64,000 nucleotides of DNA from an uncultured Methanomicrobiales archaeon (GCA_963758915.1 CAVWXH010000003.1:192001-256000); one strand, 5' to 3'. Shown: positions 1 to 18,968, numbered from the stretch's first letter. Notes: generated by a model from the letters alone, not told the origin. Made by a program: numbers and translations.

Positions 1-350
1 CAGGCACTTCCTGTCCGGTCGTCGAGACACTGGACGGGTGTGATGCCTGTATCCTTGTGACGGAATCAACGCCGTTCGGCCTGCACGACCTCCGGCTTGC
101 CGTCGATGTCGCTGGCCGGCTGGGTATTCCCACAGGGATCGTCATCAACCGGAGCGATGGAAAGGACCAGGCAACACTCGAATTCTGCAGGGACCAGGAC
201 CTTGAGGTGATGATGACCATTCCCTTCGACCGGGAGATTGCCGCCATCCAGAGCAGGGGAGATCTCCTCTGCCAGGTACAACCGGAATGGCAGAAGGCAT
301 TTACCGCTCTGTTTGTTAAATGCAGCAAACTTGCCGGGGTGACCCGATGA
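1..350 (+). CDS. MinD-superfamily P-loop ATPase with ferredoxin insert, C-terminal part (5' truncated)
   Basis: PGTSCPVVE..VTESTPFGLHDL..GIVINR..IPFDREIA motifs; stop overlaps next ATG (ATGA 347-350). Confidence 0.85.
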   Translation, partial: GTSCPVVETLDGCDACILVTESTPFGLHDLRLAVDVAGRLGIPTGIVINRSDGKDQATLEFCRDQDLEVMMTIPFDREIAAIQSRGDLLCQVQPEWQKAFTALFVKCSKLAGVTR

Positions 351-1232
351 TCCGGGTTGCGGTTATCAGCGGCAAGGGTGGGACGGGAAAGACAATGATC
401 ACCGCTGCGCTTGCCCAGTTGCTCCCCGGAAGCCTCGTGCTTGCGGACTGCGATGTGGACGCAGCGAACCTTGAGCTACTCCTTTGCCCGGGACTCATCC
501 GGACAGAACCGTTTATGGGGATGAAAACCGCGGTGATCGATCCCGCCTGCTGCAACCAATGCGGGGAGTGCATGGAGCACTGCCGGTTTGGTGCAATCGG
601 ACATGACGGGGATCAATACAGGGTAAATCCGATCCGCTGTGAAGGGTGTGCCGTATGCGTCCATGTCTGTCCCATCGCCATCACGATGCAGCCACGACAG
701 ACTGGAGAGGTGATGTATTCAGACACAGAACGGGGCCACCTTGTACATGCCAGGCTTGTGCCGGGCGCAGGCAACTCCGGTCTGCTCGTCCATGCGGTGA
801 AAAAAACTGCCATGGAACGGGATCGGAATTGCGACCTTTTCCTGATCGATGGTCCACCCGGGACCGGTTGCCCGCTCATCTCCACGATCAGCGGCGTGGA
901 TATTGTACTGATTGTAACTGAACCGAGTGTTTCAGGGTTACATGATCTCAAGCGGGTGGTAGCAGTCTGCAGGCAGTTCCGGCCACGGGTCCTTGTTGCC
1001 ATTAACAGGTTCGACCTGGAACAGCACACTTACTCAAGCAATACAAACATGGTGCAGTGAAGAGAATATTCCGGTAATCGGTAAGATCCCCTTTGATCCT
1101 GCAGTCATTGAATCAGTCCGGAAAGGAGTTCCCGTCACGCAGGCAGGAACATCTCCCGCAGCAGAAGCCATTCAAATGCTGAAGTCTAATCTTGAACAGG
1201 AGTTGATGCACTATAGAGACCAGCGGAAATGA
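347..1232 (+). CDS. MinD-superfamily ATPase with 2x[4Fe-4S] insert, frameshifted near 1020
   Basis: SGKGGTGKT, DCDVDAANL, two CxxCxxCxxxC motifs, DGPPGTGCP; C-terminus (EENIPVIGKIPFD) lies in another frame (ORF 993..1232). Confidence 0.85.
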
Positions 1233-1656
1233 GGGGGCCTGCTGCCGGCGGCGTGGAAGACCCCGGATGAACCGGTCATTTAATGGCTCACCATCTGCAC
1301 GGTGCTATGCGCCACGATGCGGCCCGGACAACAACGGGGAGTGTGTTTCGCTGCTCCCCGAAGAGCTGGCAGTACTTGACCTGATCGACCTTCAGGGCCT
1401 TGAGCAGGAAATGGCTGCAGCAGCACTTGGGATTTCCCGGAAGACGGTCTGGCGGGATATCCATGAGGCACACCGCAAGATCGCCGATGCTCTTGTTCAT
1501 GGTAAAGCCCTTGAGATTGGAGGATGCCTTCGCAGGAGAAACGGGATATGCCCGCTTCGGAATACAGGTATCTGCCCGAAAGATAAGGGTAGTAACGGTC
1601 ACCTCCAGCCAGATGACAGGGTGGACGCAGAACAGAGTGATATCTATCAGGAATAG
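1213..1656 (+). CDS. DUF134 HTH DNA-binding protein; start uncertain (ATA 1213 or ATG 1267)
   Basis: EELAVLDLIDLQGLEQEMAAAALGISRKTVWRDIHEAHRKIADALV; in-frame RRRGRPR upstream of ATG 1267. Confidence 0.8.
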   Translation: METSGNEGACCRRRGRPRMNRSFNGSPSARCYAPRCGPDNNGECVSLLPEELAVLDLIDLQGLEQEMAAAALGISRKTVWRDIHEAHRKIADALVHGKALEIGGCLRRRNGICPLRNTGICPKDKGSNGHLQPDDRVDAEQSDIYQE

Positions 1657-1796
1657 CGATAGTAAATTCTGAGGAGGCTCGTTGGATCGAATAGTTTTTT
1701 TCCCCTATTCTTATTAAACGATGATTCATTGGCAGGCTATTTCTCTAAAAAATCCCTAACAGTAATAGAAAGTTTTCTCATCAGGAGCAAGTGACC

Positions 1797-2243
1797 ATGG
1801 GAGATACAATCAAACTCGGAATCATCATCTGCGACCGGTACCGGACCTGTGCAGGGGGCAAGTGCATGCGTGCGCTGCATAACCGTGAAGGCGCGTTTGA
1901 GCGGTACAAAGGAAAAGACGTGGAACTGGTCGGGTTTGCCACCTGTAACGGGTGCCCCGGCGGCAATGTCGAGTACGTACCCCAGGAGATGAAGAACAAC
2001 GGCGCTGAGGTCATCCACCTTGCTACAGGCATGATCGTCGGGTATCCTCCGTGTCCCCGGATTTCCTATTTTTCCAGGTTCATTAAAGAAAAATACGGGA
2101 TGGACGTCGTGGTCGGCACGCACCCGATCCCGGAAAAATATTATAAAACCCACCAGGAACTCGGCTCGTGGGATACAAACGCCTGGAAAGATCTCATCGC
2201 ACCAACGCTTTCTGACGAGAAAATGCGGCTCGCATATGATTAG
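1797..2243 (+). CDS. CGGC-domain metal-binding protein
   Basis: GIIICDRYRTCAGGKC, GFATCNGCPG, HLATG..PPCP, VVGTH. Confidence 0.85.
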   Translation: MGDTIKLGIIICDRYRTCAGGKCMRALHNREGAFERYKGKDVELVGFATCNGCPGGNVEYVPQEMKNNGAEVIHLATGMIVGYPPCPRISYFSRFIKEKYGMDVVVGTHPIPEKYYKTHQELGSWDTNAWKDLIAPTLSDEKMRLAYD

Positions 2244-2308
2244 GGAGTCCTTGAACTTTTGAAAAAAAAGTCTGGTCTTTATCATATCCCCACACCAACA
2301 GTCCACGG

Positions 2309-2620
2309 ATGACTACCCGATCGACCATGACCATTCCGGAAGCTGCTGGGGTGCTGGGTATTACCGGTAAGGAAAGCCTGAACGGAATTCATGCCCGATT
2401 CCATTCACTGATCAAAGAGTGGCACCCTGATGTCTCACAGCATGATCCTAACCTTTCCCATATCATGCTCATCCGCATAAAAGAGGCATATGTCATTCTG
2501 GTGGAGTACGGTATGAATTATGAATTGTCGTTCAAAGCAGAGGATATCAGGAAAGGCTCTGAATATGACTCAAAGGAGTTCTGGATGAGTCATTTTGGTG
2601 ATGACCCTATCTGGAACTGA
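2309..2620 (+). CDS. Small J-domain (DnaJ-like) protein
   Basis: LIKEWHPD motif, IKEAYVIL, conserved-looking W..HFGDDPIW tail. Confidence 0.8.
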   Translation: MTTRSTMTIPEAAGVLGITGKESLNGIHARFHSLIKEWHPDVSQHDPNLSHIMLIRIKEAYVILVEYGMNYELSFKAEDIRKGSEYDSKEFWMSHFGDDPIWN

Positions 2621-2849
2621 GTAATATCCACAAGCACATCCGGTACCTCCATCATTACGTAAAAAAAAAATTACATAGAATTTAACTCTGGCGTGGTAGG
2701 TACAACGGTTTACTCCCCGGATATCAGAATAAAAATTACTATGATGCAGGATTGCAGCCTGTCACACGATGGTTGCCCTTAACAATCTTTTTAAGTATTT
2801 ATGCGCATATGAGTAATTATGGTGCCTGAGTGGTACCAGGAGAATATCA

Positions 2850-3104
2850 ATGCCAGTATTAAATGGAACGGGACCACAAGGAAATGGTCCATTCGGCGGC
2901 AGAAGATTTCGCCGATGCCACATACCAGAGGTCCCCTCACAGGAACCGGTAACAGCGGCACTGCCAGATCAGGAAATCAATGTGGGTGTGGTATCACAGG
3001 ATTCCCCACAGAAGACAACATTATACGGCCGGGGCCGTGGTGGAGTGCCCTGTGGGTGCGGACCAGGTTTAGGTTTCAATGGCTCCAGGCGCCTCCAGAG
3101 ATAG
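2850..3104 (+). CDS. DUF5320-like small Gly/Arg-rich protein
   Basis: MPxxNGTGPxGxGP..GR and YGRGRGG.PCGCG motifs. Confidence 0.7.
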   Translation: MPVLNGTGPQGNGPFGGRRFRRCHIPEVPSQEPVTAALPDQEINVGVVSQDSPQKTTLYGRGRGGVPCGCGPGLGFNGSRRLQR

Positions 3105-3131
3105 TCCATTCAATATTTTTGAGGTTTTTTT

Positions 3132-3491
3132 ATGAAAGTTGCTATCGCAAAAGAAGGAGATATGGTATCCGAGCATTTCGGCCACTGTACTGAATATGCA
3201 GTGTTCGTTATCGAAAAGTCAAAGATCATCTCACGGGAAATTCTCGAGAGCCCCGGGCACGAGCCGGGAAAGTTGCCGCCATTCCTTGCCTCGCATAAGG
3301 TTACGCACGTCCTCGCAGGCGGCATGGGCCCACGGGCAGTAGACCTGTTCTGCGCAAATAATATCGAGGTTTTCCTTGGGGTACGGGGCAGGATCGATAC
3401 CGTGATTAAGGATTTCATAGCAGGAAACATCGCACAGGGTGAGAGCAGCTGCACCCATGGCGAAGAAGGGCACGAGTGCAGCGGGCATTAA
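3132..3491 (+). CDS. NifB/NifX family FeMo-cluster-binding protein
   Basis: VSEHFGHC, GGMGPRA, His/Cys-rich tail. Confidence 0.88.
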   Translation: MKVAIAKEGDMVSEHFGHCTEYAVFVIEKSKIISREILESPGHEPGKLPPFLASHKVTHVLAGGMGPRAVDLFCANNIEVFLGVRGRIDTVIKDFIAGNIAQGESSCTHGEEGHECSGH

Positions 3492-3664
3492 CCCCCGTTG
3501 ATCACTGCACCACCCTCAGTGATGAGGATGCACTCCGCATTTTACTATGATGGGAAGGGAATCTTCATTCAATAGTTGAAAAACGGCCCCTCAATCGTAT
3601 AATTTGAATAAACTGGGATTAAGACAGTAAATACTCACGAGCACGATACCAGGATGAAATCATT

Positions 3665-4537
3665 ATGACCAAACCACAATCTTCCAAAGCATCGAGTTGC
3701 GATGAGAACTGCAGCTCATGCTCATCAGAACAAGCAACGCATGCCCAAAAAGGGCTTCCACCAAAAGCGAACATCGATGTGAAACATGTAATCCTTGTGT
3801 TGAGCGGCAAGGGAGGCGTTGGTAAATCAACCGTCGCCGTCAACCTTGCCTTTGCGCTTTCCAACCACGGAAGGAATACAGGGTTGCTCGACCTTGATTT
3901 CCACGGCCCCAGCATTCCGAAAATGCTCGGCATCGAAGACCAGAGGCCTGCTGTGCTTGATAAAGCCCTGGAGCCGGTCCATGTCACCGGCACCCTCGCG
4001 GTCATGTCAATGGCATTCCTGTTGCCGGACACGAGCAGCCCGGTGGTGTGGAGAGGGCCGATGAAGATGGCTGCAATCCAGCAGTTCCTTACTGAAGTGA
4101 ACTGGGGCCCGCTTGATTACCTGGTCGTCGATCTGCCACCAGGGACCGGAGACGAGGCACTGAGTATCGCGCAACTGGCCCCGAACCTGCGTGGTGCGGT
4201 CATCGTCACGACACCACAGGATGTCGCCGTCCTTGATGCCGTCAAGGCAATAAAATTTATCGAAAAACTGGAGATGCCGGTGATAGGAGTCATCGAAAAC
4301 ATGAGCGGGATGGTCTGTCCACACTGTGGGGTTACGATAGATCTGTTCGGCATGGGTGGCGGGGAGAAAGCAGCACATGATTTCGGCGTGCCTTACCTGG
4401 GAGCTATCCCCCTTGATCCGGCAATGGTAAAAGCAGGTGACGAAGGACGCCCGTACATCCTTCGCCATGCAGATTCACCCACCTGGAAAGCGGTGGATGC
4501 CGTGATGGAGAACCTGGTTAACGTGGTTGAGTCATAA
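3665..4537 (+). CDS. mrp: Mrp/NBP35 Fe-S cluster carrier ATPase
   Basis: N-terminal Cys motif, SGKGGVGKST, WRGPMK, DLPPGTGDE, ENMS..CPHC. Confidence 0.93.
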   Translation: MTKPQSSKASSCDENCSSCSSEQATHAQKGLPPKANIDVKHVILVLSGKGGVGKSTVAVNLAFALSNHGRNTGLLDLDFHGPSIPKMLGIEDQRPAVLDKALEPVHVTGTLAVMSMAFLLPDTSSPVVWRGPMKMAAIQQFLTEVNWGPLDYLVVDLPPGTGDEALSIAQLAPNLRGAVIVTTPQDVAVLDAVKAIKFIEKLEMPVIGVIENMSGMVCPHCGVTIDLFGMGGGEKAAHDFGVPYLGAIPLDPAMVKAGDEGRPYILRHADSPTWKAVDAVMENLVNVVES

Positions 4538-5225: not shown

Positions 5226-6428
5226 TTAATTATTCAATTGCCGGATAACCTCTTCTCGCACCTTGTTCAGGGGGATTTTCAATGTTCGTGCGATCTGTTT
5301 CAGGTCCTCGTATTCCGGCTTTTTAGCGATGATGCTGCCATTCACGGTGGAGGTCTTCACACTGATAGCAAATTCCTGCCCCCGGACTATTACCTTCATC
5401 GTTTGTCGGGAACGATGAGCGACTAACCTGGGAATATCAAGAATCCTCACGCCAAGAGTCCCGGTTTCTTCCATCAGAATTTCCATTAGCCCCGGGTAGT
5501 CCAGTTGATTCGTAATGACATGCAGGATCTGTACTGGCCGGTTCTTTTTTCCGGATGCCGTTGTGACATATACGTCAACGGCACCTGCTTCGCGGAGTCG
5601 TTCAAGCGTGTAACCGACGGTTTCTCCTGGGACGTCATCGAGATTAGTCTCGAGCATGATGATCCGGTCCTGGATAGCATCAAAATTTGTTCCTTCAACA
5701 ACTCTCAGGACAGAGGGCCTTTCCTTTATGCTCCGTGAACCTGTCCCATAACCTGTTTTCAACGGTGTCATGGGCGGATATGCATCGACAATTCTCTCTG
5801 CGAGGTTGGCAAAAATTGCGATTCCTGTCGGGGTAGACAACTCCGTATCCGCCGGAAATGATGAATACGGGACCTGGTGGCGACAGAGGATCTCTAATGT
5901 TGCAGGGGCCGGGCAGGCAATTTCACCGGTTGCAATCCGGGCAAACCCGGACCCAAGTACCGGAGGGGTCCCGTAAATTTGCCCTTCCAGAAATCCGTGG
6001 TGATCGAGAAGGGATATTGATCCGAGAATGTCAAAGAGCGTATCGACAGAAGCCATCTCGCGATGATGAAAACCGGAGCGATGGAGTTTCGCATCGGCTG
6101 CAAAAAGGTCAGAAATAATGGATTGTGTTTTTTGTTGTGCTGTCTCTGACAGGCCTGCCTTTTTTGCGATAGTGTCTGCTGAACTCCGCATATCGTCATG
6201 ATTCCTGTGATTTTTCTCCTTGATATCGAGGATAAGTTTCTTTGCAGAAATTCCACCTGCGTCGACATCCTGGACCTGGCAAGAAAAATGTTCACAGGAG
6301 GGTAGCTCGTTGATAGCATCCACCAGTGGAACGAGAAGATCGCCGGACCCCGTAAGGTCCACGAGCGCTGCAAGAAGCATATCTCCGGATATTCCGGCAA
6401 TTTTAGGGTCAATTACCAGGACTTTCAT
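5226..6428 (-). CDS. larC: LarC (DUF111) family nickel insertase-like protein
   Basis: AGISGDM, PAPATLEIL, ELSTPTG, LETNLDD, KKNRP, ETGTLGVR, KPEYED. Confidence 0.88.
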   Translation of the reverse strand: MKVLVIDPKIAGISGDMLLAALVDLTGSGDLLVPLVDAINELPSCEHFSCQVQDVDAGGISAKKLILDIKEKNHRNHDDMRSSADTIAKKAGLSETAQQKTQSIISDLFAADAKLHRSGFHHREMASVDTLFDILGSISLLDHHGFLEGQIYGTPPVLGSGFARIATGEIACPAPATLEILCRHQVPYSSFPADTELSTPTGIAIFANLAERIVDAYPPMTPLKTGYGTGSRSIKERPSVLRVVEGTNFDAIQDRIIMLETNLDDVPGETVGYTLERLREAGAVDVYVTTASGKKNRPVQILHVITNQLDYPGLMEILMEETGTLGVRILDIPRLVAHRSRQTMKVIVRGQEFAISVKTSTVNGSIIAKKPEYEDLKQIARTLKIPLNKVREEVIRQLNN

Positions 6429-6440
6429 GCCAGATATTTC

Positions 6441-8282
6441 CTATGCTGCCACGGGCTGGTTCAAACGGGTATAGATCTTTTTTGCGAGCCGGGCTACTTC
6501 AAACGCCCGGTCACGGGCACCGGGTATCGCCTTGGTAAGGTAGGCACCGGTTTCTGCCCGTTTTGATGCGGCCTTTGCATCTTCGCCAAGCAGGGTCGCG
6601 ACTGCTGCGGGTACTGTTACATTGATGATAGTATGGCCGATATATTGCAGTTCCTGGGTGAGTACAGCTCCTGCAAAAAGAGCCGTCCCCATATCCGGGT
6701 TTTCCCGGGCTTTTTCGTTGAGAGCGAATTCAGGGACGGCTTTTGCCGCCAGGTTTTCAATGTGGTACGGTTTACCATCAATGGTGATATCATAGGACAC
6801 ATGGGAGTCAAAGGCCCAGTACCTTTTGGTGAATTCGTCAGTCCGTCTCCCCTGTGGTTTTATTGTGGTAAATTTCAGTGAGATTTTATGACCGGTAAAC
6901 CCGGATAACACCGCTGAACCACGGGACTCGACTGCCGCTTTTCGTTCTTCATCGAGTGCTCGTGCCGCCTCTTCTACGGATTTACCTGCCTTCATCATCT
7001 CGTACACCGTTACTGCCCGGCGGTAGATTGCCCGGTCACGGACATCCTCGCTTGCAAGGATGCAGGCGTGGGAGACTGAACCCCTTGAAACCGTCTCGGC
7101 TTTCCGTGCGATGGTATTGAGTGAGCAGAGCGCCATCTCGGGGTCGATAAAGGAATTCATCTTATAATCGGTGATGGCTTCAGCAACAGGATATGGATCT
7201 CCCCTGTGTTTGATGAGCAGTCGAATTGCAGGCATGCAGTCCCCGCACACATGACCCAGGGGCGGGTTGACCGGACCTCCTGAGAACCCTGCTCCTATCA
7301 TCGGGGCCTCTTCAAAACCCGCAAATATTTCTTCGAATGCCATTGACGCAATGACTGAAGGGCCGCCGATATCTTTGAGTATGAGTCCGAAATCCCCGAT
7401 TACCCTGGCTGTATCATACTCCTCATGGGTCCCCCGGACATGGATCTTCGGGGGTAGTTTTGCTGCATCTCTCGCACCCTTTCCTGCAATATAGGCAGTA
7501 TCAACATCCCCGAAGGTCCCGAATTCCTCCCCGAGTGCTGCATCCGGATGAATCATCTCGAGCGCCACAGCCGCTCCAATAAGTGCCGGCCAGAGCGGGT
7601 ATGCAGTTATTCCGGCGCCATGCATGCTTTTCAATATCGCTTCGGTACCCACTCTTGCGGTATTGCTGGCAAGCTCGGGGATATTAATGTCCTCCCCAAG
7701 CGCACTGTGGCCGTAAATCGCCCCACCTGCAATGAATGGCGGAAGCACCGCCCCGTCCACCCGGGTGAGTTTCTTATCCATGAGCTCGTTATAGACAGCC
7801 AGGTACGCAGGGAATGCAGGTATTTTATGGGTAAACTTTCCCGTCGTGAGTGCGATTGCACTCGTCCGTGGCGCTCCCGCGTGCATCCTCGCGATCGCAC
7901 CGAGCTTCCGGTTCCCGAGGGGGACGCCTGACCGTGCACAGGAACCTGTGAAATAGGCTAGGGTTGCGACGATCAATGCCGCATTCTCGGGAGCTGCACC
8001 GGCCAGCATTGCCTGGCGGATCGCCTTTTGCATTACCATGTCAAGCGGCAGACTTCCCGCAGCAGCATCAACAAGAGTCATCCGGCTCAGAAGTTCCATA
8101 TCCGAGGAGCCTGTACTGCAGAATACGTCCTCTGCAAGTGAATTTGCTGCACAATAGACAGGTATTACTAATGATCCGTGCCCTTTGGTCGCCGCTTCAA
8201 GCTTGTCGTTTGTCATATAATCTGGTTTAAAGGTGGCTGCAGCCTGTGTAGCCAGTAAGATCTTCTCCCTCTCTTCGGTCAT
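6441..8282 (-). CDS. Hypothetical 613-aa soluble protein of unknown function
   Basis: Long ORF ending 12 bp before larC; no family recognised. Confidence 0.85.
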   Translation of the reverse strand: MTEEREKILLATQAAATFKPDYMTNDKLEAATKGHGSLVIPVYCAANSLAEDVFCSTGSSDMELLSRMTLVDAAAGSLPLDMVMQKAIRQAMLAGAAPENAALIVATLAYFTGSCARSGVPLGNRKLGAIARMHAGAPRTSAIALTTGKFTHKIPAFPAYLAVYNELMDKKLTRVDGAVLPPFIAGGAIYGHSALGEDINIPELASNTARVGTEAILKSMHGAGITAYPLWPALIGAAVALEMIHPDAALGEEFGTFGDVDTAYIAGKGARDAAKLPPKIHVRGTHEEYDTARVIGDFGLILKDIGGPSVIASMAFEEIFAGFEEAPMIGAGFSGGPVNPPLGHVCGDCMPAIRLLIKHRGDPYPVAEAITDYKMNSFIDPEMALCSLNTIARKAETVSRGSVSHACILASEDVRDRAIYRRAVTVYEMMKAGKSVEEAARALDEERKAAVESRGSAVLSGFTGHKISLKFTTIKPQGRRTDEFTKRYWAFDSHVSYDITIDGKPYHIENLAAKAVPEFALNEKARENPDMGTALFAGAVLTQELQYIGHTIINVTVPAAVATLLGEDAKAASKRAETGAYLTKAIPGARDRAFEVARLAKKIYTRLNQPVAA

Positions 8283-8525: not shown

Positions 8526-10361
8526 TTACGATGCATCCCGCCTCATCGGACAAACATCTGCCCCTTCCAGCTCCCCGCCTGCCCATGCATACCGGTCCCT
8601 GATCGTGGGGGGAAGATCGTTCTCCCCAATCGGGATGAACCCGAACTGGCGATAAAAGTCCACCAGGTGCAGCACTGAATGCATATAGAGCGTATTTTTT
8701 CCGCACGCTTCAACCAGGCCGGCAACAACGCCCTTCGCAAAGCCGTGGCCCCTCATCGGTTCTGGCGTAAACACTGCATCCAGCTCGTAACCATCCGTAT
8801 GCTTCCTGCACCGGGCAAGGGAAACAGGTTCATTTTCCCTATAGGCTGCGAATATCCGGTCTATTCCAGGGTCACCTTTTGTCTGATGATAATCCACCCA
8901 GAGCGACGCTGCAATCGGGAATTCTGCACTGAGCAATTCCCTTACCTGGATGCCATTCATATTATTCGTGCAATTACTCCCTGATCCACGCTGGGAAAGG
9001 CCAGCGGAAGGGATACCTTCGCCGGAACCTTCAACCCGGTAACAGGCTGCCGGAATATGGATTTCAAACCTCGCTCCCCGGCCTTCCTCACCTGTTTCGA
9101 CGATGGTCATCCCTGAAACTCCGACAATCTGGCTACAGATAAAGAGGCCGATCCCCTTGTGACCCCCGGAATCATATTCAAATATCTCCTGCTTTTTCGA
9201 TTCCGGGATACCCGGGCCGTTATCTTCAATAGAAAGGACCAGTCCCCCCCCGTGTTCAAAATACCTGACAAGGAGAAGGTCGAACCTCCCTGCATACTGG
9301 AATGAATTTGCAACAATATGGCGGAGCACATCCCTTATGAGCGGGTCTGCATTCACTTCCAGTCTCTCACACCAGAACCTGACGGCCACATCCTCTCTCA
9401 TTTTTGAAAGGGCCATGGATACGAGATATCCCTGGACCTGTTGCCATACCGGCGGTGTGGTCCCCAGGTTCCTGTACGATAAAGAAAGGTCGAGGCGGCG
9501 GGATATCGTCGATATCTTCTCCCCGATCTTTGTAAAAAAAACATCCGAAAGCGTGTCACTGACCTGGATTTTCGCCTGCCTGACTATCTCCTTGATCTCG
9601 TTGACATCCCGCTGGAGATGATCTGTTGATATACTCGACAGGAGGTTGAGCTTGTCATTTGCTGATTGTAATGCGTTTTCAGCCCTGACCCGCGGAGTAA
9701 TATCGATAAACGTCAGGATTGCACGGCGATCAGGAAGCAATGCCCCGGAGACGATTACCCGGGCAGACCTCTTCTCTCCGGCAATAAAGGTAGTCTCACC
9801 GGAATACACGGGCTTCTGTGCAGTCAGGCTGGAAAGTACTCCATTTTTCCCACCCTCGTTTTCCCAGAATAATGTTACTGGTGCCCCTTTGAGGTCCGGA
9901 AGGTCTTTCTTGAAAAATTTACGGGCCCGGTCATTCGCTTCCTCAATTACCCACCCTTCAGGCGTATCATGGACAAGGAGACTTCCCGCCCATGAATGGT
10001 CAAAAAGCCCGCGATACAGGGCCTCATTCTCGCGGAGCCGGGTAGTAATCGTTGCCACCAGCCATCCGATCCCGATAATGACGGCAAGTCGCAGGACAGT
10101 TTCAAAAAGGACTCCTGAATCAGCCCCTAAAAAAACAATGACCATGATAAAATATGTCCCACCCAGCAATATCGATGTTAACAGCCCGTACCGTGGGTAA
10201 CGGTATGCTGAAAGGACAACCGGAATATACAACAGATGAGAGAATACAACAGTAATCCCGGAGAGGAGGCCGCCAAGTATCAGGCCAAGGCTAATGGCAC
10301 TGCTGGCGATAATTGCGAAATTCCATGCCCTGTCACGTCGTTTGAGTATAGATAATTCCAT
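8526..10361 (-). CDS. Membrane PAS/HATPase sensor-kinase-like protein fused to C-terminal GNAT
   Basis: About 4 TM helices, PAS, EDNGPGI/IFE/GIGLFI boxes, GNAT FTPEPMRGHGFA..FYRQFGF. Confidence 0.85.
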   Translation of the reverse strand: MELSILKRRDRAWNFAIIASSAISLGLILGGLLSGITVVFSHLLYIPVVLSAYRYPRYGLLTSILLGGTYFIMVIVFLGADSGVLFETVLRLAVIIGIGWLVATITTRLRENEALYRGLFDHSWAGSLLVHDTPEGWVIEEANDRARKFFKKDLPDLKGAPVTLFWENEGGKNGVLSSLTAQKPVYSGETTFIAGEKRSARVIVSGALLPDRRAILTFIDITPRVRAENALQSANDKLNLLSSISTDHLQRDVNEIKEIVRQAKIQVSDTLSDVFFTKIGEKISTISRRLDLSLSYRNLGTTPPVWQQVQGYLVSMALSKMREDVAVRFWCERLEVNADPLIRDVLRHIVANSFQYAGRFDLLLVRYFEHGGGLVLSIEDNGPGIPESKKQEIFEYDSGGHKGIGLFICSQIVGVSGMTIVETGEEGRGARFEIHIPAACYRVEGSGEGIPSAGLSQRGSGSNCTNNMNGIQVRELLSAEFPIAASLWVDYHQTKGDPGIDRIFAAYRENEPVSLARCRKHTDGYELDAVFTPEPMRGHGFAKGVVAGLVEACGKNTLYMHSVLHLVDFYRQFGFIPIGENDLPPTIRDRYAWAGGELEGADVCPMRRDAS

Positions 10362-12804: not shown

Positions 12805-13965
12805 ATGAAAAATGCATTCCATATCATGCTCATCCCGACATTAGGTTGTCCCTCAAAATGCAGTTATTGCTGGAGTTCCGAGGAGGGATCGCCGGTTATG
12901 AGTATTGAAACAGTACAGGAAGTGGTTACATGGTTAAAAGATCTCAAGAAGAACCGGATCACTATTACATTCCATGGGGGTGAACCACTCCTTGCCGGGG
13001 CTGATTTTTACCGGAATGCATTACCACTCCTTTCAAACGGTTTACGGCACCAGAACCCGGAGTTTGCGATGCAGACCAACCTCTGGAAGATGACCCCGGA
13101 AATAGCCAGGGTACTGGCAGAATACCATGTCCCGATAGGGTCAAGCATCGACGGTCCTGAGGATATCAACGATTCACAGAGGGGGGACGGCTACTTCAAA
13201 AAGACCATGAACGGTTACCGTATTGCGAGGGAACATGGTCTTACGGTCCGGTTCATCTGCACATTCACATGTGAATCAGTGAAGTCCAGGGAGGAAATAA
13301 TTGAATTTTTCCACCGGAACGGGTTTGTACTCAAACTGCACCCGGCATTACCCTCTCTGCGATCAGAAAACCCCAGACAATGGGCCCTGGATCCGGAAGA
13401 TTACGGGGACCTGCTCGTGTACCTGCTGGACAAGTCCCTTGATCACTACGGGGAGATGGAGATCATGAATATCAATGACCTCTGCAGGTGCGTATTTACC
13501 CGCCATGGTTCGGTCTGTACCTACGTGGACTGCATGGGGACCACGTTTGCCGTGGGACCGGATGGGAGCATATACCCCTGTTATCGTTTTGTAGGCATGC
13601 CGGAATATGTCATGGGAAATGTACGTGATCGCCCCACTCCTGAAGACCTTGCCGAATCCGGACCGGGAAAGCTGATGGCCCGGTACAAGGAATACGTGGA
13701 CAGGGAATGTGGGGAATGCCCCCATATCAGGTACTGCAGGGGAGGGTGTCCGTACAATGCAATTGCACCGACAGATGGAGAAATAAAGGGTGTTGACCCC
13801 CACTGTATCGCATATAAACGGATATTTAGTGAGATCAGTGAAAGGCTCGATCGGGAGATGTTTGAATCACCCCCCATGGAGATGGCAGGTTTCGGTTCAG
13901 TTCACGGGAAAAGAAAAAAACCCGGAGTAATGGCACTGATGCATAAGTCCGTCTCGGACTATTGA
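12805..13965 (+). CDS. Radical SAM/SPASM enzyme, methanogen putative peptide-modifying family (TIGR04083-like)
   Basis: FHIMLIPTLGCPSKCSYC, FHGGEP, SPASM YPC..CGECPHIRYCRGGC..DPHC. Confidence 0.85.
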   Translation: MKNAFHIMLIPTLGCPSKCSYCWSSEEGSPVMSIETVQEVVTWLKDLKKNRITITFHGGEPLLAGADFYRNALPLLSNGLRHQNPEFAMQTNLWKMTPEIARVLAEYHVPIGSSIDGPEDINDSQRGDGYFKKTMNGYRIAREHGLTVRFICTFTCESVKSREEIIEFFHRNGFVLKLHPALPSLRSENPRQWALDPEDYGDLLVYLLDKSLDHYGEMEIMNINDLCRCVFTRHGSVCTYVDCMGTTFAVGPDGSIYPCYRFVGMPEYVMGNVRDRPTPEDLAESGPGKLMARYKEYVDRECGECPHIRYCRGGCPYNAIAPTDGEIKGVDPHCIAYKRIFSEISERLDREMFESPPMEMAGFGSVHGKRKKPGVMALMHKSVSDY

Positions 13966-17283: not shown

Positions 17284-17293
17284 GGTGAAAAAA

Positions 17294-18013
17294 ATGGCAG
17301 AAAAGAAATCACCAGCAAGTGGATGGCCAATCGCAAAGGGCGACTTCCATTCAGGAGATGCCAACAGCCCGGTCGCAGTCGTGACCATGGGGTCTCACCT
17401 TGATGAACAGGGTATCTGCGATGGCGGCGCCGCACTCTGCGGTTCCTGTAAGACTGAAAACCTCGGTCTTGAGAAGGTCATTGCAAATATTATCTCCAAC
17501 CCGAACATCAGGTTCGTGCTCCTCTGTGGTACAGAAGTGAAAGGTCACCTCTCCGGACAGACCCTCGTGGCTCTCCACAAGGGCGGGGTCAAGGAAGGCA
17601 GGGTTGTCGGTGCAGAAGGGGCTATTCCTTTCATCGAGAACTTAAACGATGCCGCTATCAAGCGCTTCCAGGAGCAGGTCGAATTCGTCAATATCATGGA
17701 GTCTGAGGACGTCGGGGCCATCAAGGCCAAGATCGGCGAACTCACAAGCCGTGATCCGGGCGCATTCGCCGCTGACCCGATGATCGTCGAGGTCAAGGAA
17801 GCTGCGGGCGGAGAAGAGGCGACCGGAGAAGTGCAGCCACTCTCAGGAGAGGTAGCACTTATCCACGCACGGATGAAGATAATCGAGAGGATGGTAACGG
17901 ATATCGGATACCGCGACAAGTTTGCCGCGGGGGTCTATGGCGGTAAAATAGAAGGTCTCATGATCGGCCTCCTGGTATCGTTTGCCATCATCGGGTTCAT
18001 GTTGATGGGGTGA
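17294..18013 (+). CDS. mtrA: Mtr subunit A (corrinoid protein)
   Basis: [29 protein letters not shown]-terminal TM. Confidence 0.97.
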
Positions 18014-18018
18014 TAAAG

Positions 18019-18225
18019 ATGGCAGAAGAAGAAGTTAAAACAGCAGGACCCATCCGGATGGTCGCAATAGACAGAATGGTGGAGCAAATCCGCTATAAGG
18101 GACAGATCCTGGCCCGGACCAACAAGCCCGAATCGGGGATTATGGACTCGGGAATGATAGGATTTGCAATCGGAATGCTCATTGCCCTGGTCCTGATCGT
18201 TGTGCCGGCATATCTTGTGGGGTGA
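18019..18225 (+). CDS. mtrF: Mtr subunit F
   Basis: [16 protein letters not shown] plus TM. Confidence 0.93.
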
Positions 18226-18230
18226 AAAAA

Positions 18231-18968
18231 ATGGCAGAAAAGAAATCACCAGCAAGTGGATGGCCAATCGCAAAGGGCGACTTCCATTCAGGAGATGCCA
18301 ACAGCCCGGTCGCAGTCGTGACCATGGGGTCTCACCTTGATGAACAGGGTATCTGCGATGGTGGCGCCGCACTCTGCGGTTCCTGTAAGACTGAAAACCT
18401 CGGTCTTGAGAAGGTCATTGCAAATATCATCTCCAACCCGAACATCAGGTTCGTGCTCCTCTGTGGTACAGAAGTGAAAGGTCACCTCTCCGGACAGACC
18501 CTCGTGGCTCTCCACAAGGGCGGGGTCAAGGAAGGCAGGGTTGTCGGTGCAGAAGGGGCTATTCCTTTCATCGAGAACTTAAACGATGCCGCTATCAAGC
18601 GCTTCCAGGAGCAGGTCGAATTCGTCAATATCATGGAGTCTGAGGACGTCGGGGCCATCAAGGCCAAGATCGGCGAACTCACAAGCCGTGATCCGGGCGC
18701 ATTCGCCGCTGACCCGATGATCGTCGAGGTCAAGGAAGCTGCAGGCGGCTCAGAAGTCGCTGCTGCAGGTGTAAACCCGCAATTCCTTGAAATCGAAAAG
18801 AGACTCGACAAGATTGAGAAAAATATTGAGTTTACCGATGCGGAGATTGCCCAGCGCGTGGGCAGGAAAATCGGTCGCGATATCGGTATACTCTACGGAC
18901 TGGTCGCAGGATTAATGGTATTTGTCATGTTGTTAGTTTTGCTGCCAAAATTGAATGTATTGCTGTAA
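18231..18968 (+). CDS. mtrG: MtrA/MtrG fusion
   Basis: MtrA domain followed by [30 protein letters not shown] (MtrG). Confidence 0.93.

Follow-up and report, generated by a model that had tools for sequence, protein, structure and literature searches.

What is the function of the protein of 613 amino acids that lies directly upstream of a larC paralogue in an uncultured Methanomicrobiales archaeon, and which half of that paralogue serves it? The locus is part of a stretch of 64,000 nucleotides (GCA_963758915.1 CAVWXH010000003.1:192001-256000), all of which we call the window, and the gene of the 613-residue protein is called here gene X. An initial annotation made from the sequence had proposed a nickel- or nickel-pincer-dependent enzyme other than LarA, provided with its own LarC for nickel insertion. 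According to our analysis X is very probably tied to pincer chemistry in some form, and with a probability of about one half it is a new pincer-cofactor enzyme whose LarC2 partner likely cytidylylates or loads the cofactor, as sequence comparisons suggest. The features on which the argument is built are the following.

6441..8282, minus strand: gene X, encoding a mostly helical protein of 613 amino acids from an unnamed conserved family; candidate nickel-pincer enzyme
6429..6440, minus strand: 12-base spacer that separates the stop codon of X from the start codon of larC
5226..6428, minus strand: larC paralogue of 400 amino acids, 28.7% identical to the canonical larC (G000:C1:24881-26032)
5694..6428, minus strand: LarC1 half, eroded, as aligned to PDB 12bi
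5229..5675, minus strand: LarC2 half, a cytidine triphosphate (CTP)-binding domain by homology, from alignment to PDB 12bi

Gene X and its family

Both open reading frames are on the same strand with 12 bases between them, as had been described, and every motif cited for X and LarC is present in the translations. Said to be rich in glycine and alanine, X is so in alanine (16.0%), its glycine content (8.3%) being ordinary; the N-terminus is charged and the top 19-residue hydropathy is 1.5. Co-transcription of X and larC would be expected from the short gap and the conserved adjacency, and in metatranscriptomes four of seven runs (shares 0.05-0.08) gave only short contig pieces, none spanning the gap.

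That X stands outside any characterised family was confirmed, Pfam, NCBIfam and PDB sequences giving no match above noise with a single or a family query; nor did the family searches place it in a characterised nickel-independent family, the outcome named by the initial annotation as contrary to its proposal. Homologues form at least 331 clusters, with a mean identity of 51% among family members; a profile search against 50% representatives returned 205 of them, mostly fragments among the matches listed, and the top named relatives belong to Methanomicrobiales and Methanoregulaceae genomes. Two homologues used as queries had no usable match in the ESM Atlas, and no fusion of X was seen among proteins of 1088-3105 amino acids, which is weak evidence, shorter forms falling outside that search. 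The source genome contains no X paralogue, and there is no internal repeat in X. We rejected the label methylthioribose-1-phosphate isomerase, attached by JGI to some members, which had no Pfam or NCBIfam match to IF-2B/MtnA; hhalign of X against two proteins that we take to be isomerase-like gave probabilities of 0.1% and 0.3%.

Linkage to larC and to the other lar genes

The association of X with LarC extends far beyond the window, a LarC match being present at 75 of 80 genome loci and a LarC2 match at 68 of 79 metagenome loci, which carry distant members. Two of the genome misses are limited by the contig (its end cuts the larC start in L012, and L036 is a 1.9-kb contig) and three are apparently real (L010, L013, L060); all 11 metagenome misses have one flank of less than 250 bases. 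The partner of the distant relatives is usually a stand-alone LarC2 of about 165 amino acids, encoded on the same strand up- or downstream of X at a distance of at most 80 bases and often adjoining an intact larC; when four such partners were scanned with PF01969, the match was limited to the C-terminal third. Out of 72,556 plasmids, the identical five records, all close kin, are matched by X and by the stand-alone LarC2.

Each of 151 Methanomicrobiales genomes carries larC, but X is limited to 46 of them (in two it is broken, in one it lies at the end of a contig), so X is not the general client of methanogen larBCE and another client or role remains for larC. At least two LarC matches, counted by eye, occur in 44 of the 46 X-positive genomes against 8 of the 105 X-negative ones. 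A convincing larA was found in none of the 151; Lar_N matches in 52 of them were not accepted as LarA, for they cover about 35-70 of 204 positions at no more than 25 bits, against 115-217 bits for full ones. Outside this order X is rare (in the phylum of G151, 3 genomes out of 301, including the one with locus L009; in that of G152, 1 out of 251). Locus L009, from a Desulfuromonadaceae bin (G151), encodes an X 79% identical to the window protein beside a methanogen-type larC and is possibly a misbinned contig. In another genome the module is decaying (G141, L171:3654-5180), X being a C-terminal remnant and the larC paralogue frameshifted.

Co-distribution of X with larB, larC and larE, which had been suggested as a check, is seen most directly in clusters of rhizobia and of five metagenome loci, which bring these genes, in some cases with a nickel transporter, together with X and in which larA was not found. 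Loci L112, L132, L133, L143 and L166 unite X, the stand-alone LarC2, intact larC, larE and larB; the identical gene set occurs on plasmid b of Rhizobium tropici CIAT 899, where a gene for a HoxN/NixA nickel transporter comes next, and, with X, in Ciceribacter thiooxidans, and no Lar_N is encoded on either the R. tropici or the Ciceribacter plasmid. A NicO transporter is situated near X in L165, and three Thermoproteota loci (L039, L044, L065) have the gene order larB-larC-larE-X. For 24 chosen X-positive genomes and plasmids, mostly outside Methanomicrobiales, larB was found in 23, larE in 22 and larA in 11, the larB and larE misses being bins of 1.1-1.2 Mb; the background frequency of larB in Thermoproteota is 105 of 251. 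X itself and 30 aligned members do not match Lar_N (PF09861), and hhalign of X against a protein presumed to be LarA-like gave a probability of 0.3%.

The partner: loss in LarC1, retention in LarC2

The window gene is a LarC, as was annotated, by PF01969 (317 bits), TIGR00299 (120.7, cut-off 90) and NF052512 (110.5, cut-off 50), and it aligns over its full length with the Moorella LarC (PDB 12bi, E 1.8e-31), keeping the LarC2 motifs. PMC13510736 assigns to LarC2 the CTP site and a proposed site of cytidine monophosphate transfer (CMPylation), and to LarC1 a proposed nickel site; the substitutions H108A, H118A and H160A leave Moorella LarC less than 10% of its activity, and E104A and other acidic substitutions make it markedly lower. 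In Moorella numbering the window copy has lost E104 (now D112), H118 (R123) and H160 (T167) and has kept the equivalents of D15, H108, H116, E119, D124, D128 and E187. Counted over the 10 tested LarC1 residues it keeps 6, and it has one extra histidine. The missing long histidine-rich stretch, to which attention had been drawn, is not diagnostic: the first 250 residues hold 9 histidines, the canonical copy 7, and the active Moorella LarC1 domain 8 (PMC13510736). As the initial annotation stated, larB, larE and larA-like matches are missing from the window, and the second, canonical larC for which it proposed to look exists in the source genome (94% complete), on contig C1 together with larE, with larB on contig C6; this genome has no Lar_N match.

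Eight of 74 locus matches were excluded before the LarC comparison as truncated, frameshifted or consisting of LarC2 only, and 58 linked full-length LarCs of Methanomicrobiales and Methanothrix were taken from 68 retained sequences. E104 is kept in 15 of these 58, H108 in 45, H118 in 27, E119 in 13 and H160 in 6, and the entire histidine motif is gone from the Methanocorpusculum copies; all five residues are kept in 18 of 18 resident larC copies. Ten LarC2 positions are, on the other side, kept in 58 of 58, and the linked copies are less alike in LarC1 (mean identity 45.5%) than in LarC2 (58.3%), with the opposite order in the resident ones (54.1% and 50.3%). Linked LarCs of Archaeoglobus and of most Thermoproteota are intact.

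These data bear on the initial proposal that the paralogue is a dedicated nickel insertase of X. The intact linked copies just mentioned, three methanogen copies of the same kind and the LarC1 residues and extra histidine remaining in the window copy speak for such a role; the lost equivalents of E104, H118 and H160, the vanished histidine motif of Methanocorpusculum and the fact that most distant relatives pair X with LarC2 and with no LarC1 speak against it, and we regard it as highly improbable, more so than any other explanation considered here.

What stays the same among the partners of X is LarC2, which distant relatives have as a separate gene and methanogens within a second full-length LarC. 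Residues D264, E269, K294, K295, R297, E321, G326, K358 and E372 of LarC2 are conserved across the partners of X, and the basic and acidic residues common to these partners and to catalytic LarC2 are invariant or nearly so. A LarC2 tree built by a quick method from a subset of 69 domains, with an arbitrary root and weakly supported deep branches, unites 28 stand-alone proteins in one clade (Shimodaira-Hasegawa-like approximate likelihood ratio 100) and groups the linked full-length copies with Thermoproteota-type larC, apart from resident Methanomicrobiales larC. This topology suggests that there were two routes to a LarC2 partner. The simplest history would be an old module of X and LarC2, with one archaeal branch in which X was paired with a full larC, the nickel half of which probably decayed where a resident larC was present. 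The correlation between the identity matrices of X and LarC2 (r 0.53) was not used as a sign of co-evolution, shared descent being sufficient for it.

It would be possible, though unlikely, that X is a pincer-cofactor enzyme and the partner a non-catalytic subunit, a chaperone or a CTP-sensing regulator. The stand-alone proteins do diverge fast, with a mean identity of 30% against 51% for X, they lack residues of the ETN motif, and LarC2 alone assembles as a hexamer (PMC13510736), which would suit such a part; the near-invariance of the residues common with catalytic LarC2 is at odds with it, as is the existence of X genomes that have no dedicated copy.

Conserved residues and predicted structure of X

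Across 86 diverse members of the family the polar residues N100, R125, K126, R132, K149, H192, E197, E242, D247, K303, D304, H344, K394 and D492 are invariant, and H35 and H245 are kept in 84; the R71 column was set aside as unreliably aligned. This pattern would fit an enzyme active site. No cysteine is conserved, and of the PPLGHVCGDC motif, which had been listed as enzyme-like, both cysteines are variable (42% and 15% of the 86 rows) and H344 is invariant. Histidines and lysines that may hold nickel or tether a cofactor are at hand among the invariant residues (H192, H344, K126, K149, K303, K394), and three sites can be placed on the window:

7887..7910, minus strand: X residues 125-132 (R125, K126, R132), in 86 of 86 rows; candidate phosphate or carboxylate binding site
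7707..7709, minus strand: X His192, in 86 of 86 rows; candidate nickel ligand or catalytic base
7251..7253, minus strand: X His344, in 86 of 86 rows; candidate nickel ligand or catalytic base

Two AlphaFold2 models of X (mean predicted local distance difference test scores 88.6 and 89.3) are mostly helical, with a small beta sheet at 467-508. Searched with the entire 613-residue chain, both models found nothing in the PDB at E 0.001 or better with Foldseek, and their best Z in the wide VIA-align search, 5.9 and 5.3, is of the background level. A likeness of one model to methyl-coenzyme M reductase (McrA; Z 4.8, root-mean-square deviation 4.9, 149 aligned residues) is within the same background, with the second model McrA does not rank among the first 50, and hhalign against single alpha and beta sequences of this reductase gave 0.7% and 0.4%, so that the idea was dropped.

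The same acidic residues and histidines (E197, E242, D247, D304, H192, H344) could also belong to a protein that replaces LarC1, modifying or metallating a pincer precursor activated by LarC2 with cytidine monophosphate (CMP) and so supplying a variant cofactor to an enzyme encoded elsewhere. Such a role would account for the decay of LarC1 and the retention of LarC2 beside X; the complete clusters contain no other conserved candidate client gene, X has no profile similarity to LarC1 (hhalign probability 0.5%), and we find this substitution somewhat less credible even than the non-catalytic partner.

A proposed mechanism and what weighs against it

Returning to X as a pincer-cofactor enzyme, we propose that the ordinary larB, larE and larC of the genome would make the nickel pincer itself, and that the LarC paralogue would serve X through its CTP-binding LarC2 half only. 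LarC2 would carry out a CTP-dependent step, most simply making or keeping a cytidine-dinucleotide form of the pincer, or else activating the cofactor for loading, and X would hold the nickel-pincer cofactor and perform hydride transfer, by analogy to LarA, NphT and the pincer-dependent ornithine cyclodeaminase. Cofactor binding and the CTP-dependent step are what we infer here, and hydride transfer is suggested by that analogy. A bolder version, which we consider doubtful at present, gives X a new fold and makes it a nickel enzyme working with a third pincer form, nickel-pincer cytidine dinucleotide, supplied by a stand-alone LarC2 subfamily spread from methanogens to rhizobia, for a novel hydride transfer possibly linked to methanopterin-dependent one-carbon metabolism.

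Several observations weigh against the proposed mechanism. Nine of the ten LarC1 residues are kept in 3 of the 58 linked methanogen LarCs and in 8 of 9 from other archaea, and the stand-alone LarC2 proteins lack E and N of ETNxDD and may be non-catalytic. A single LarC match is found in four X genomes: in G710 and G711 it is an intact larC adjoining X, and in G085 and G132 X has no larC neighbour and keeps 17 of 17 key residues; as these four have one LarC each, a dedicated copy cannot be a strict requirement. In G042 (L170:2978-3644) the middle of X is deleted and the larC paralogue is still open. The genomes that we counted are related to each other, which makes the counts look more independent than they are. 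Lastly, the larE of R. tropici CIAT 899 (L172:18631-19437, NC_020061.1) carries one in-frame stop. This larE is annotated as two hypothetical proteins, and the Ciceribacter larE is intact.

Gene neighbourhood and substrate leads

Genes of methanopterin or methanofuran metabolism, as named here, stand at five of the 80 genome loci and three of the 79 metagenome loci with X (L025, L042, L060, L062, L074, L091, L151, L165). Of 15 archaeal genomes that have X and lie outside Methanomicrobiales, 14 encode Mch, among them all 7 from Thermoproteota (63 of 251 in the background); two Desulfobacterota genomes with X and the two plasmids gave no Mch match. The rhizobial X cluster comes after an amino-acid ABC (ATP-binding cassette) transporter, RidA and a MalY/PatB gene. 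As leads one can name methanopterin- or methanofuran-linked one-carbon metabolism for archaea and certain bacteria, and for rhizobia an amino acid; the remaining neighbours are diverse (about 60 of 300 neighbour clusters were scanned), and the X family may have several substrates.

The methanopterin connection can be read in another way, namely that X together with LarC2 constitutes a module that needs no nickel, for instance for CTP-dependent activation of another phosphorylated methanopterin or methanofuran metabolite, with larB and larE hitch-hiking. The eight loci and the Mch count in Thermoproteota, obtained from related genomes, would agree with this, and larB is common in archaea regardless of X (105 of 251). 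Proteobacterial clusters with the full larC-larE-larB set, twice joined by a nickel transporter, and the missing Mch in Desulfobacterota and on plasmids are hard to reconcile with it, and we hold this explanation to be quite improbable.

Several other genes lie around the locus. A cluster at 57-4537 of the window (DUF134, CGGC, NifB/NifX-type, Mrp/NBP35 and ferredoxin-ATPase genes) faces the larC paralogue; its members recur beside X at loci of Methanomicrobiales, Methanothrix and Methanobacterium-like organisms (L003-L006, L016, L059, L067, L070-L072, L094, L107, L124), hinting at a metal-cofactor island. Directly upstream of X a membrane PAS histidine kinase with a C-terminal GNAT domain is encoded at 8526-10361 (minus strand), and mcrA is about 10 kb from the larC paralogue. 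A peptide-modifying radical S-adenosylmethionine/SPASM enzyme (TIGR04083, 708 bits) occupies 12805-13965 (plus strand), just upstream of the mtr operon, which has two mtrA copies (17285-18013 and 18222-18968, plus strand) with identical N-terminal parts and different C-termini. These two resemble mtrA-mtrF and mtrA-mtrG fusions, presumably the usual arrangement in this order. A gene for a glutathione S-transferase (beta-etherase-like) is found just upstream of X at four proteobacteria-like loci (L132, L149, L165, L166).

Significance and comparison with known systems

PMC13524815 puts the number of known nickel enzymes at only 12 and notes that there are hundreds of prokaryotes which produce the pincer cofactor but have no LarA. 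X offers a concrete candidate for a client scaffold that has no sequence relationship with LarA, NphT or cyclodeaminases, and cultured sources of it exist (Ciceribacter thiooxidans, Rhizobium tropici, Methanothrix soehngenii, Methanoculleus). The stand-alone LarC2 is a natural separation of the LarC half-reactions, which makes the purpose of CMPylation directly testable. What appears to be new is that a system linked to the pincer has an unrelated client together with an additional component for maturation. Keyword and accession searches of the literature, with subscription journals and some supplements outside them, gave no account of X or of the stand-alone LarC2 subfamily, and X is absent from the searched part of the PMC13524815 supplements, the remainder of which, including the main supplementary PDF, could list it. 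The mining in that work used Pfam co-occurrence in bacterial genomes and could miss X.

With the LarA superfamily (PF09861) X shares the company of larB, larC, larE and nickel transporters and the possession of conserved histidines and lysines; unlike it, X has about 600 amino acids, is mostly helical and comes with an extra, dedicated LarC2 partner. Another parallel is NphT, a pincer-dependent aldo-keto reductase homologue and a non-LarA client beside larBCE (PMC13524815), and X too is a non-LarA protein beside larBCE, although the TIM (triose-phosphate isomerase) barrel of NphT, of family PF00248, was repurposed from NAD(P) (nicotinamide adenine dinucleotide, or its phosphate) enzymes and X is without any Pfam match. 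The ornithine cyclodeaminase, which binds a non-covalent nickel-pincer adenine dinucleotide (Desguin 2025, as cited in PMC13524815), is a precedent for a dinucleotide variant of the pincer, but with adenine in place of the cytidine form proposed here, and X has no Pfam match to cyclodeaminases. Compared with LarC of Moorella thermoacetica and LarC2 of Lactiplantibacillus plantarum (12bi, 6bwo), the window LarC keeps the LarC2 motifs and has lost nickel-site residues. The stand-alone LarC2 partners do not stem from a larC split in two; they accompany an intact larC as an additional copy. In their proposed role they recall MocA of molybdopterin cytosine dinucleotide synthesis, a dedicated cytidylyltransferase that tailors a metal cofactor for one enzyme class; the analogy is functional only, the proteins and the cofactor being unrelated.

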